Part shown: piece by piece, positions 12,426 to 52,365 of the stretch
Layout of the letters: each line of letters opens with the position of its first letter
Position numbering within the stretch: position 1 is the stretch's first letter
From: Eledone cirrhosa
Lineage: Eukaryota
Length of the DNA stretch: 64,000 bases
Direction: 5' to 3'
NCBI GenBank assembly: GCA_964016885.1
Contig: OZ024762.1
Coordinates: 22,692,001-22,756,000, forward strand
Translations under genes and position numbers: made by a program
The notes under the pieces: generated by a model
Told to the model about the DNA's origin: nothing
The model's input: the letters and a program-made list of their open reading frames with translations, nothing else
Database searches by the model: none

Positions 12426-13654
12426 TCAGGATGCAAACAGTTTTAAACTAGTTAAATCGAACAGTCTACTCGATACTTGGGATAATAGTATATTACTACA
12501 TTAGAAAAATCTTTGCCCGACGGCTGAGCACTTGCCGTTTCAGCAGCGCATTTATAAATTATATATATATAATAAACGTCTGGACGACCGATCCAGACGT
12601 ATATTATTATTGTCTGTCATCTAGAAACCTTTGGTAATGGAGTAGTTATATTTTGTGTTGTTCAATTTCTAATATATATATATATATATATATATATATA
12701 TATATAAAGGAAGACTCTACTACCCTAAGTATTGAGTACTCTGCTGCGTTATGGTCCATCTTGTTATATATATATATATATAAATATATATATATATATA
12801 TATATATATATATATATATATATACAAATATAAATTCAGCGATGATCGCATTTCGGCGGGTAGAAAAAGCGAAACGTAACGCAAATATATATAAATATAT
12901 ATATATATATATATATATATATATATATATATATAAGTATTATATTATAGTTATGATATTAATGTTAAACTGATTTACAGGCTTATATATATATATATAT
13001 ATATATATATATATATGTGTGTGTGTATGTGTGTGTGTGTGGTTACGTCTGCAAATATATACAGGGAGCGAGAGAGAGGGAGAAAGAGAGAGAAAAGGGA
13101 GATAGAGTAAGAGAGAGAAAGGGAGAGAGAGAGAGAGAGAGAGAGAGAGAGAGAGAGAGATAGTGAGAAAAAGAGAGAGAGAGAATAAATAGTTCCCTGT
13201 ATCTTATTAATTTGTATACATTTTTATCCTCTATTTATTCTTTCTAATCTTATCATATTGTAATGCGCCATTGTCTTCTGTATCTCGGGCCTTGCGGCTC
13301 ATAAGGCTATCATCATCAACATCATCATCATCATAAGCATCATCCTGGGCATCATCAATATGCGCATCATAACCATTATAATCACTATCATCAAATACTA
13401 TTACATAGGTCAACATAACTGTTAAAATGGCGGCTCTCTCCAGGCAGATGTTTCTGTTCTGATTTGTTTTGGAAATTATACGAGGGTCTTTTATTTCTTT
13501 ATTCTTATTTTTTGTAGTTATTCATTGTTATTTTTATTGTTATTGTTATTATTACCATTATTTGTATAATTGTTATTAGTAATTTTATTTTTATCATTAA
13601 TATTATTATTTGTATATAATTATTTTCATCACTATTATTACTATCAGTATCGGT

Positions 13655-13822
13655 AAAAAGTCAGACCCCATGTTTTGCAGCATTGAGGTATGGCCCTTTA
13701 CGGTCGGAGTTCAAATCCCGCCGAGGTTAACTTTGTCTGTCATCCTTGCGGGGTCGATAAAATAAAGTACCAGTAACACACTGGGTGATTGCTGGCCTTG
13801 TATCAAAATTAGATACATTAAT
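13655..13822 (+). mobile_element. tRNA-derived SINE
   Basis: B-box GAGTTCAAATCCC plus the same core as 8516. Confidence 0.85.
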
Positions 13823-13824
13823 AT

Positions 13825-15160
13825 TAGTAGTAGTAGCAGTTGTAATAGTAATAGTAGTAATAGTAATAGTAGCAGTAGTAATAGTAATAGTAGTAGTAGT
13901 AGTAGTAATAGGAGTAGTAGCAGCAACATTAGTAGTAGTAGTAGTAGCAGTAGTTGTGGCACCAGTAGTAATGGTAGTAGCAGAAGTAGTAATAGTAATA
14001 GTAGTAATAGTAGTAGTAGCAGCAGCAATAGTAATGGAAGTAGTAGCAGCAGTAGTAATGGTAGTAGTAGCAGCAGTAGTAATAGTAGTAGTATTAGTAG
14101 CAGTAGTAGTAGTAGCAGCAGTAGTAGTAGTAGCAGTAGCAGCATTAATGGTAGTAGTAGCAGAAGTAGTAATAGTATTAGTATTAGTAGTAGTAGTAGC
14201 AGCAGTAGTAATAGTAGTAGTATCAGCAGTAATAATAGTAATAGTAGTAGTATTAGTAGTAGTAGCAGTAGTAGTAGTAGCAGTCGCAGTAGCAGTAGCA
14301 ATTATAATAGTAGTAGTAGTAGTAGTAGTAGTAGTAAGTATTAGTAGTAGCAGTAGTAGTAGTAGTAGTAGTATTTGTTGGTTCTTAATAATATGAAGAG
14401 GAAATTTTATGTCTGTGTGAATAATCCATTATTGTAATTGTGTCTCATTTAACTCTCACCCTCTACCTCTCTCTCTCTCTACCCCTCTCTCTCTACTCCC
14501 TCTCTCTCTCTACCTCTCTCTTTACCTCTCCCTCTACCTCTCCCTCTATCTCTCCCTCCACCTCTCTCTCTACCCCTCTCTCTCTACCTCTCTCTCTCTA
14601 CACCTCCCTCTGATTCGTTAATATCACTATCATCATCAAAATCAACACTATCATCAACATCATCATCATCATCATCAACACTATCATCACCATCATCATC
14701 GTTATCATCAACACTATCATCAAAATCAAAATCAACACCATCACCACCATTAACAACATCATCACCACCATTAACAACATCATCATCATCATCATTACGT
14801 CTCATGCTCTTTAACTCTCTCCCCACCTCCCCCTGATTCATTAATATCACTAATATCATCATCATCACCATTTACAATATCATCATCATCATCCTTCTCA
14901 TCACCATCATTCTCATCACCATCACCATCATCATCATTCTCATCGCCATCACCATCGTCATCATTAACATCATCATCATCATTAAGATCACCATTCTCAA
15001 TATCATCACCATCATCACCATCATTAACATCATCATAATCACCATCACCACCATCATCACCATCACCATCATCACCATCATTAACATCATCATAATCACC
15101 AACATCAACATGATTTACATCATTATCATAATTCTCATCATCATCATCATCATTAACATC
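13825..15160. repeat. (TAG/CAG)n, (CT)n and (CAT)n low-complexity tracts
   Basis: Direct inspection. Confidence 0.9.
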
Positions 15161-15163
15161 AAT

Positions 15164-15360
15164 GGCGGTGGATTGGCAGTATCGTTAGAGGGTCGGACGC
15201 CATGGTTGGCAGCATAGAGTTACGGCCCTTGCCATTCTGAGTCCAAATGCCGCCGAGGTCAACTTTGCCTTTCATCCTTATGTAGTTGATAAAATAAAGT
15301 ACCAGTAATGTACTGGTGGAAATTGCTGGCCTTGTGCCAAATGTAGAGGCAATTATTATT
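15164..15360 (+). mobile_element. tRNA-derived SINE
   Basis: A/B-box head and the same core. Confidence 0.85.
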
Positions 15361-15417
15361 GACATCAACAACATCATTCTAATCATTGACATCATCATCA
15401 TCAACATTTACATCATC

Positions 15418-49275: not shown

Positions 49276-49320
49276 AGTCACTGAAGAGGTCACAGAGTGT
49301 GTGGCGAAAGGACTATGACT
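49276..49320 (+). ncRNA. Minimal type I HHR
   Basis: AGTCA-CTGAAGA-gGTCACA/TGTGGC-GAAA-GGAC-TA-TGACT. Lies between ~52-bp inverted arms at 49170-49222 and 49430-49481. Confidence 0.75.
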
Positions 49321-50155
49321 ATATATAAACAACTATCTGGTTGTGGAACCAACCAACCAGAAATTTATAACTTTGTAGATTTGTAAATTTATAAATTTAT
49401 AAATATATAATAAATTGAAGTGAAAGCATCTGGTGCGTGTGTTTCTTATTGGCAACATGACCCTCCCAAAGTATAACAATATATATATATATATATATAT
49501 AGCCTAATGGATTCCCTTGTAGTACGTACAATCTGGACACACTTACACACACCTTGGTGTTGTGACAATACTATACATCATTGCACCTCTTTTATTATTG
49601 AACATTCACGTGACTTCTACCGACCAATCAAAATTATAGTGCTTATTCACGTGACATTCAACCACCAAACAAATCACGGGCGCTCTATCTCAAAATTATT
49701 TTTGAAAACCATTTGAAATGCGCAACCGGTAAAAGACTTAAAACTTAAAACTAACACAGAATACTAACCAATACTTATTACTAATTTATACTTATTCCTA
49801 ATTAAACTATTTTTCACTGGAAAACATCTGTCAGCATTTTCTTTTCCTTTTTACTAATATATATATATATATGTCCCAATATATATATATATATATATAT
49901 ATATATATATATATATATATATATATATATATACATATATATATATATATGTCCTAATATATATATATATGTCCTAATATATATATATATATATATATAT
50001 ATATATATATATATATATATGTCCTAATATATATATATATATATATATATATATATATATATGTCCTAATATATATATATATATATATATATGTCCCAAG
50101 GCTCTGATACCATCAACACTATACACACAGAGCTGGCATATCTAAGAACTGAGTA

Positions 50156-50211
50156 ACTGCCTGATGAGGTCATATCCATTCAATGGCTATCATCGAAATA
50201 TATATAGCAGT
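50156..50211 (+). ncRNA. Type I HHR (family A relative)
   Basis: ACTGC-CTGATGA-GGTCATATCCAT/ATGGCTATCATC-GAAA-TATATA-TA-GCAGT. Confidence 0.75.
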
Positions 50212-50689
50212 AAATAAAGGATTATGAGTTCATGCAATTGACTTATGTTTCGTCACTATATATATATATATATATATATATATATATATATATGTATTTA
50301 GGAACCAGTAAGACCCCGACAGATGAGCGGGGTCTTACTGGTTCCTATTACCCACTCTACTACCCCAAGTATTGAGTACTTTGGTGCGTTATGGTCCACC
50401 TGGTTCCTTACCACATTTCCTTCGTTACATATGTATTTATATATATAGGTTTATACCTAAAATAGCCATGTTACCTGGTACACGTGCTTTTGTCAGTAAA
50501 CTTACACTTTATCAATTCTACATTACTATATATATACCTATACCTAAAATAGCCATGTTACCTGGTACACGTGCTTTTGTCAGTAAACTTACACATTATA
50601 AATTCTATACTGTTATACACACCGGACAACGTCACACAATACCACTTCACGTTTATCATCGTTTACAGTTTATTTACCTTCACTTACAA

Positions 50690-52170
50690 CTTCTTTCTTT
50701 CTTTCTTTCTTTCTTTCTTTCTCTCTGTCTCTTTCCTTCTTTCTCTCTTTCCGCCTCTGTCTCTTTCGTTCTTTCTTTATGACGATTTCCTTCTCTCTTT
50801 CTATCTGCCTCTTTCATTATTTCTCTTTCTTTTTCCCTCTGTCGCTTTCGTTCTTTCTTTCATTCTTTCTTTCTTTCTTACTTTCTTTTTCCTTCTTTTA
50901 CCAGCATCAAACATACCTCCATCACCATCAACACTATCGTCATCATCAACACCACCACCATCATCAACACCACTACCATCAACAGCACCATCAACACCAA
51001 CACCACCATCAAAACCAACACCACCATCAACACCAACACCACAATCAACACCAACATCAACACCACCGCCTCCATAATCAACACCCACCTCCACCACCAC
51101 CATCAACACCACCACCACCAACACCACCACCACCACCACAATCAACACCACCACCACCACCACCACAATCAACACCACCACCACAATCAACAACACCATC
51201 ACCACCACCATCATCATCATCATCAACACATTTAACCTTCATTTAAATATTAGAGATTATTATCAATGAGTTCATACAATTACCGAAAACTCCGGTAGGT
51301 GTCTCCAAGTTCGTGATAAGTGCATTAACCTAACATGCCATCACCAGCCACCCTCCACCCTATACCCCATCCACCCTCTTCTTTCTATATAATATTCCCC
51401 CTCTCCCTTCCACTCCTTTACATCTGCCTTTCCAACATTTTTCAACCCCTTGTCTTTTTTTCCCTTCTTTCCATTCACATCTTCACAACGACTTCCTCTC
51501 ATATACACATATATATATATATATATATATATACATATATACTCAGTTATTTATATATATATATATATATATATATATATATATATATATATACTCATTT
51601 ATTTATATATATATATATATATATATATATATATATATATATACTCATTTATTTATATATATATATATATATATATATATATACTCATTTATTTATATAT
51701 ATATATATATATATACATATATACTCAGTTATTTATATATATATATATATATATATATATACTCATTTATTTATATATATATATATATATATACTCATTT
51801 ATTTATATATATATATATATATATATATATATATATATATATATATATATACTCAGTTATTTATATATATATATATATATACTCAGCTATTTATATATAT
51901 ATATATATATATACACACACACACATACGTGTGTGTGTATATATATGAGATAATCTGAAACATGACATCTATAATTTTTAATGTGTGTGTATGTATGAAA
52001 TACAATGAATATATATATAGATCCACATATAAATAACAGTTATATATATATATATATATATATATATATATATATATATATATATATATATATATAACTT
52101 ATGTATACATGGATTTATATATATACATACATGTATATATATATATATATATATATATATATATATATGT
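50690..52170. repeat. (TTTC)n, (ACC/ATC)n and (TA)n tracts
   Basis: Direct inspection. Confidence 0.9.
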
Positions 52171-52177
52171 GTGTGTA

Positions 52178-52365
52178 AATGAAGTAATTCCATCGGAAAA
52201 GTCCAGGAAAAAAGAGTGCTCTATGTAGGCAACAGAGCTTAATTATTATTATTATGTAATAAACAACATAAGGCAATTATTCCATTTACCAGTGGTTTCT
52301 TTTGCTTTTAAGAAACCACTGGTAAATGGAATAATTGCCTTATGTTGTTTATTACATAATAATAA
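52178..52365 (-). mobile_element. Fold-back remnant of HHR family D (3' half-HHR plus tail)
   Basis: Palindrome ~52245-52365 with GAAACCACTGGTAAATGG. Its tail is homologous to 25030-25095. Confidence 0.75.

Follow-up and report, generated by a model that had tools for sequence, protein, structure and literature searches.

A covarying bulged hairpin beside the tail-less junction of (TA)n-inserting elements in Eledone cirrhosa, probably a docking signal for reverse transcription

The window analysed here, 64,000 nucleotides of Eledone cirrhosa DNA (GenBank assembly GCA_964016885.1, contig OZ024762.1, positions 22,692,001 to 22,756,000, forward strand; positions below count from its first letter), has a G+C content of 32.9%, is dense in (TA)n and other simple repeats, and contains insertions of 60-1500 bp which sit between TA runs, many with hammerhead core boxes and fold-back arms. 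A preliminary description of this DNA had pointed out a 9-mer, T(T/C/A)GAGT(A/G/T)CT, shared by the tails of such insertions. In this study, we found that the motif is real yet does not stand by itself: it forms one arm of a bulged hairpin with covarying pairs, which the earlier description had missed. The pairing, the covariation, and a fixed position 2-5 nt past the tail-less junction are all observed. Judged from sequence, the hairpin probably serves in the RNA as a docking signal that determines the starting point of reverse transcription. The elements themselves are of a known kind, endonuclease-containing (EN+) Penelope-like elements with a hammerhead in the pseudo-long terminal repeat (pseudo-LTR), and the hairpin in their tails is apparently undescribed so far.

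Architecture and covariation of the hairpin

All 17 motif sites cited earlier are correct in letters, place, and strand, and they represent ten families rather than 17 separate events. The strict pattern T[TCA]GAGT[AGT]C[TC] matches the window 16 times, at 14 of the cited sites and at 38256 (plus strand) and 63723 (minus strand), where the nearest TA run lies 127 and 3037 nt away, respectively. Thirteen of the 16 matches lie 35-75 nt before (TA)n, as do 6512 of 88603 (7.3%) non-simple background positions, and 500 letter-permuted patterns gave a mean of 0.41 matches, and a maximum of 7, in that zone. This enrichment is partly circular because the pattern was derived from those very sites; independent support for the motif comes from the hairpin, from sequencing reads, and from published consensus sequences. 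The families had been called unrelated, which holds in so far as most pairs fail to align upstream or downstream of the motif (z <=2.8) but is too strong, since A and J (z 9.2) and D and F (z 6.9 and 3.8) are related and common ancestry is likely.

The 9-mer forms the 3' arm of the hairpin, where its GAGT (or GAGC) pairs with an upstream ACTC (or GCTC). The first two letters of the motif form a 2-nt bulge on the 3' side, and above it stands an upper stem of 3-6 bp, freely variable in sequence, with a loop of 3-63 nt. The sites are as follows, with the motif position in brackets.

27737..27763, plus strand (27755): family A, intact; ACTC, 4-bp upper stem, 6-nt loop, TT bulge, GAGT-ACT
41207..41233, plus strand (41225): family A, second intact copy
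50354..50380, plus strand (50372): family A, third intact copy
12714..12740, plus strand (12732): family A, hairpin of a 58-nt stub with 24 nt after the motif
46526..46540, minus strand (46526): family A copy, upper stem gone through a 12-nt deletion
46364..46385, plus strand (46377): family B; 3-bp upper stem including one G-U, TT bulge
34348..34369, plus strand (34361): family B copy, 5' lower arm altered once (AGTC)
37360..37381, plus strand (37373): family C; upper stem CAA/TTG
40075..40137, plus strand (40129): family D; upper stem CGTA/TACG, 42-nt loop
43850..43892, minus strand (43850): family E; second upper pair broken here at 43887
46838..46890, plus strand (46882): family F; TC bulge, 34-nt loop
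48953..49036, plus strand (49028): family G; upper stem TGTA/TACA, 63-nt loop
23028..23055, minus strand (23028): family G tail, 3' arm alone; another element replaces the 5' arm at a 5-nt microhomology
30142..30169, minus strand (30142): family H; upper stem CAGT/ACTG, TA bulge
52215..52238, minus strand (52215): family I; compensated lower pair, GCTC/GAGC
25067..25090, minus strand (25067): family I copy, 5' lower arm altered once (TCTC)
12465..12491, minus strand (12465): family J, a relative of A; two lower-stem pairs broken, upper stem kept

An exact 4-bp lower stem with at least three upper pairs is present in eight of ten family representatives, and in family I, where the motif reads GAGC and its partner GCTC, the lower pair is changed on both sides. 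The first three upper pairs are formed in 29 of 30 cells, using T-A, C-G, A-T, G-C, and G-U, and a fifth upper pair forms in two of ten families only. Pairing registers were fixed from predicted folds, and for family J from its similarity to family A; when the short hairpins were aligned with MAFFT, the result failed to track the structure. For the best-preserved copy of each family, shuffling of the upstream 100 nt produced the same hairpin in 0.2-3.4% of trials, and the combined value of 7e-16 presumes an independence that holds incompletely. The hairpin is intact at 11 of the 17 sites, and when the entire window was scanned on both strands with a hairpin descriptor, exactly these 11 were recovered.

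As a control, the pattern of ACTC, a gap, the motif, a second gap, and a TA run was searched in viral and metagenome contigs, giving 118 matches in 117 loci (2 viral, and 115 metagenome with 46 of 64 parts scanned). A 3-bp upper stem was found in 7 of these matches (6.4 expected), that is, at chance level, so the pattern by itself does not generate the upper stem. None of the 118 has a hammerhead core within 250 nt, and these collections yielded no relatives of the elements.

Three other identities for the hairpin were rejected: a degenerate second hammerhead, as the core boxes are absent nearby and a G follows GAGU in four families; a partner of hammerhead stem III, as stem III letters vary among the window families; and a selenocysteine insertion sequence (SECIS) or other Rfam family, by Rfam scans. 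The window gave no match to Rfam 15 at gathering score, hammerheads included, and among the best 150 of 339 matches of an E-value scan of 22900-52600, repeat-driven microRNA models predominated and Hammerhead_HH9 was seen on one 467-bp tandem unit only. In the accessible part of supplementary file S2 of PMC8557442, stem III of five hammerheads of the Hydra clade of Penelope-like elements is ACTC/GAGT, identical to the lower stem of the hairpin; this may be coincidence, since the window families do not have it.

Junctions, tails, and sequencing reads

The preliminary description placed the motif about 40-70 nt before (TA)n, and the distance is indeed 37-69 nt at 16 sites, the stub at 12732 having 24 nt. 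That measure runs to the far junction, whereas the tail-less junction lies 2-5 nt from the 5' foot of the hairpin: tail-less copies end 4 nt before it in families D, E, G, H, and I, 5 nt in A, 3 nt in B, and 2 nt in C, as counted by eye with shared TA letters assigned to the element (at most 8 nt if they are assigned to the target). Family J has no tail-less copy. Because the distance from the hammerhead GAAA to the hairpin (47-89 nt) varies, as does that to the far junction, the short junction alone keeps a close spacing to the hairpin.

Among 23 segments chosen by eye, there are 11 clear two-arm insertions of these families, and in all 11 a tailed arm lies next to an inverted, 5'-truncated, tail-less arm, with 0-3 nt unmatched on one side and 66-140 nt on the other; the pairing of the family G arms, across 1.3 kb, is presumed. 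Examples, and two hammerhead cores with a very long stem II, are the following.

36994..37442, plus strand: two-arm insertion, family C; inverted tail-less arm, then direct arm with hammerhead core 37254-37296 and 85-nt tail
39205..40206, plus strand: two-arm insertion, family D; hammerhead core 39964-40006, 140-nt tail
46213..46426, plus strand: two-arm insertion, family B; hammerhead core 46295-46318, 66-nt tail
30087..30465, minus strand: two-arm insertion, family H; minus arm with 90-nt tail, plus arm with hammerhead core 30368-30415
48742..48868, plus strand: family G hammerhead core, stem II >100 nt
46695..46766, plus strand: family F hammerhead core, long stem II

A type I hammerhead with both core boxes is present in families B, C, D, E, F, G, H, and I, and families A and J, whose elements are truncated there, have only its 3' half. 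With its long stem II, the family G hammerhead is predicted to fold as a proper three-way junction. The family A stub (12707-12764) consists of the hairpin and 24 nt only, and in front of it stand a few letters from the end of the tail, inverted.

Three restriction-site-associated DNA (RAD) read sets and one contig set were mapped to the following end.

43802..44120, minus strand: family E element end; hammerhead core 43960-43997, short junction 43897, long junction 43802-43804

In the window copy of family E, a T-C mismatch breaks the second upper pair at 43887, and we predicted beforehand that it is private to this copy. The reads bore this out, the pairing letter being present in 96.5%, 97.7%, and 98.3% of reads in the three runs, and by the read letters most family E copies have a 6-bp upper stem. 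In eight contigs of run X1 the sequence switches to TA at 43897, which is 4 nt short of the hairpin; the tailed ends accumulate at 43802-43804. Read piles at 43930 and 44006-44009 were rejected as element ends; they are likely library cuts because they fall on AATT sites and have mixed loose ends.

A probable role at the start of reverse transcription, and alternatives

Since the hairpin lies a few bases past the tail-less end, it likely marks where the reverse transcriptase (RT) docks and copying starts. In the mechanism we propose, the RT-endonuclease would bind the invariant face of the hairpin (U-H bulge, GAG(U/C), and R-C-U), the invariant letters serving contact and the free upper stem serving shape. 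The enzyme would nick (TA)n, and the nicked TA end would anneal to a UA-containing stretch just 5' of the hairpin. Copying from this stretch at the 5' foot would produce the tail-less end, copying from another start, 37-69 nt past the motif, would produce the tailed one, and one ribonucleoprotein (RNP) making both starts on opposite strands would yield a head-to-head insertion with a single tail.

It had been suggested that the motif be sought in the tails of full-length consensus sequences. Six such sequences of the Hydra clade, all (TA)n-inserting and with hammerheads, are given in supplementary file S7 of PMC8557442 (Craig et al. 2021), and in the accessible part of that source the hairpin is, by eye, clear in three, imperfect in one, and weak or absent in the other two. 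Hydra-2_Amil (coral) and Hydra-2_Ajap (sea cucumber) end with a hairpin of the GCTC/GAGC-ACT type plus 24-25 nt; Hydra-1_Ajap starts with two perfect hairpins whose upper stems differ; and Hydra-1_Crog (copepod) has an imperfect hairpin near its end and another at its start. Three 9-mers ending in GAGCACT occur at least six times in the 584,047 characters of the accessible supplement, four of these at ends of 14 kb of Hydra sequence, and six 9-mers of the GAGT type occur there at least three times, none found at a Hydra end.

Hydra-1_Ajap and Hydra-1_Crog suggest a more tentative extension, whose chances we would put somewhat below even: full-length Hydra-clade RNA may carry two tandem hairpins, with the two RTs of a dimer seated one per hairpin, a few bases to the 5' side of the foot, so that the tail would run from foot 1 to foot 2 and a one-tailed inverted insertion would represent two primings on one RNA. 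By eye, in the portion of the source at hand, Hydra-1_Ajap has a tail-less end, and at its start hairpin 1 begins 2 nt in and hairpin 2 comes 35 nt beyond motif 1. The end of Hydra-1_Crog holds hairpin 1 and a further 42 nt, and its start holds hairpin 2, placed 6 nt in. This extension draws on these two sequences and presumes that the start follows the end in tandem copies. If true, it would explain the tail outright.

Several observations weigh against a docking role. Six of the 17 sites lack an intact hairpin, through a single changed letter of the 5' arm (34361 and 25067), two broken pairs (12465), a 12-nt deletion (46526), one upper mismatch (43850), or, in the chimeric copy at 23028, retention of the 3' arm only. 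The copies used in the shuffle test were chosen by us. A diverged tail-less relative of family F ends about 12 nt upstream, in another repeat and not in TA, and hammerhead-bearing insertions at 49114-49479 and in the 467-bp tandem unit are without the motif. In the family E reads, the core shows no significant reduction in variability relative to the remainder of the tail (1 of 25 versus 11 of 71 positions, p 0.18; the count covers the positions listed, with 43887 taken as uniform). The mean in-context pairing probability in the eight intact families is 0.21-0.87, so that the hairpin is not always dominant, and alternative folds beat it in A, B, and H; a protein may thus be needed to hold the fold. 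Among the consensus sequences, as far as PMC8557442 was accessible, Hydra-1_Amil has by eye only a motif-like stretch with a weak stem and no hairpin was seen in Hydra-1_Obim. Finally, a six-frame search of the window with a few short protein motifs found no coding remnant of an RT or endonuclease.

The same letters could act in DNA, as inverted half-sites or as an extruded hairpin read by the GIY-YIG endonuclease, which would cut element DNA or an integration intermediate nearby; a fixed cut distance would likewise fix the junction. Recognition and cutting of plasmids by the D. virilis Penelope endonuclease depended on the tail (recounted in PMC11167929), and the tail is ascribed to endonuclease resolution in the part of PMC8557442 at hand. 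We nevertheless consider such recognition unlikely, as it fits poorly with the spacing of ACTC and GAGT, which ranges from 11 to 73 nt and is ill-suited to a double-stranded site, and with the strand bias. G-U outnumbers C-A by 7 to 1 on the hammerhead strand (p 0.035, from a hand count at fixed positions in families A-I that is mildly biased because the registers permitted G-U), and the in-context pairing probability is higher on that strand in ten of ten families (locally in eight of ten).

A little less probable still is that the transcript begins with the hairpin, which would then act within the pseudo-LTR as a promoter or transcription-start element. Some 5' arms resemble an initiator consensus, which would favour a promoter, and the motif lacks the TTCRA core of a polymerase III B box, which would speak against one. 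The 34-bp tail of D. virilis Penelope scores as a basal promoter in silico and yet, as a repeat, is not required for normal initiation (PMC2377424, in the part available), and the Hydra-1_Ajap hairpin opens its consensus about 110 nt before an ATG (by eye, same partial source as above). The covarying upper stems are left unexplained by a DNA promoter word.

We would grant about as small a chance to an RNA element with another job (RNP packaging, 3'-end formation, or control of hammerhead folding or translation), where the junction would arise from UA microhomology alone. The hairpin does lie 47-89 nt past the hammerhead GAAA, and the hammerhead of Poseidon is protein-assisted (PMC11167929). 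However, TA dinucleotides are plentiful in the AT-rich linkers, yet the junction falls 2-5 nt from the hairpin (<=8 with microhomology), and the distance between hairpin and hammerhead varies by about 40 nt while the junction stays put.

The least probable alternative, and a very improbable one, is a functionless relic of common descent. All families are probably from one clade, and A-J and D-F still align; against this, the flanks of most families are unalignable and the pairing survives changes on both sides, and the motif recurs by eye in the accessible coral, sea cucumber, and copepod consensus sequences. Of the roles proposed in the preliminary description for a conserved cis signal in the tail, whose existence is supported, recognition by the RT is thus the likeliest, and a promoter and an endonuclease site are disfavoured.

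How Penelope-like elements pick their template and form a one-sided tail and inverted ends is an open question, and an in vitro study of Poseidon mapped start sites with no recognition motif (PMC11167929). A hairpin that has persisted in several animal phyla, with its distance from the junction fixed, offers a direct experimental handle on this telomerase-related RT, a basis for recognising short non-coding stubs as members of the Hydra clade, and a means of placing consensus ends properly. If the two-hairpin extension is true, genome writing could profit from such a portable RNA signal for an RT that targets (TA)n.

Element identity, neighbouring repeats, and known systems

None of the open reading frames of >=150 aa in the window is a convincing gene; the copies are short 3' stubs, and the full-length 5' end is not present in the window. 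The insertion target of the hairpin-bearing families is (TA)n, as in the Hydra clade, and although they do not align, they likely share Hydra-clade ancestry, a placement that rests on the common hairpin and not on any published criterion. Membership of the Naiad clade was rejected, since its criterion is the lack of canonical hammerheads and hammerhead cores are present here; in the portions of the PMC8557442 supplement searched, no listed 9-mer matched at any Naiad end. Non-LTR retrozymes, which are tandem repeats each with a type I hammerhead, were also rejected, as the hairpin families are single or inverted stubs. The sole tandem case is the 467-bp unit (23268-24484), which lacks the motif.

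This unit belongs to a retrozyme-like array at 22981-24479, whose Hammerhead_HH9 matches (E 1.4e-6 to 3.6e-6) stay below gathering score. Near 23055 its inverted arm passes into the final 100 nt of a family G tail, and the two have 5 letters in common at the join; this is likely a template switch between the two families. The insertion at 49114-49479, a hammerhead-bearing two-arm (TA)n insertion with a one-sided 57-nt tail without motif or hairpin, perhaps belongs to another clade. Hammerhead-like cores at 28770 (minus), 32873 (plus), and 44550 (minus) have no motif downstream, and that at 28770 leads into (CA)n rather than (TA)n. An 800-bp repeat of 77% identity (509-1328 and 33180-33963) lies upstream of the family E and B ends, in opposite orientation. 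An abundant dispersed repeat (20295-20409, 35353-36135, 37462-38499, 39006-39095, and 60859-61367) has a 94-bp tandem sub-unit and a B-box-like word; we take it to resemble a short interspersed nuclear element, ARAGORN called no tRNA in it, and the off-target motif match at 38256 falls within it. At 61684-62646, a 320-aa open frame comprises about eight copies of a 41-residue unit, presumably similar to the end of an open reading frame of a long interspersed nuclear element (LINE), as a candidate only.

LINE and R2 RTs bind 3' stem-loops, and in telomerase, template-boundary elements are small RNA structures that fix where copying starts or stops. Those structures are part of the 3' end that is copied or precede the template on its 5' side; unlike them, the present hairpin is found 3' of one start site, and the tail-less product does not include it.

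The Poseidon element PAc offers a close mechanistic parallel: its RT starts internally, on either nicked strand, at two sites between which the tail lies, and requires RNA 3' of the start sites, up to +172 (Frangieh et al. 2024, PMC11167929). It shares with our proposal the two starts that delimit the tail, the requirement for RNA 3' of the first start, and an AT-rich target. The printed Poseidon RNA has, by eye only, a 3'-bulged hairpin at about +119 to +150, directly after the +111-118 start. Unlike the window families, Poseidon is of another clade and sequence, and it initiates in an AC-rich stem loop with no conserved recognition motif.

The preliminary description knew of no account of the motif, and we found none of the motif or the hairpin in literature searches or in the accessible parts of PMC8557442, bioRxiv 10.64898/2026.07.22.740005, PMC4209133, and PMC7229834; subscription papers, Repbase or Dfam notes, supplements, and figures may show one. 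The main text of PMC8557442, as far as available, contains no "hairpin", "bulge", or "stem-loop" and names no tail motif. The insertions are like the EN+ Penelope-like elements described in that part in having an inverted 5'-truncated copy beside a direct one, a one-sided tail, a pseudo-LTR hammerhead, and (TA)n, whereas their tails are of 66-140 nt rather than 30-40 nt. The Hydra clade is defined by protein criteria (RWK and DKT motifs, a CxCX5C linker, and no CCHH), and the window families are known from non-coding stubs. Nine of the ten use letters of the ACTC/GAGT type, unlike the GCTC/GAGC-ACT of the accessible Hydra-clade consensus sequences; they are like that clade in their (TA)n preference, their hammerheads, and, by eye, the same hairpin.

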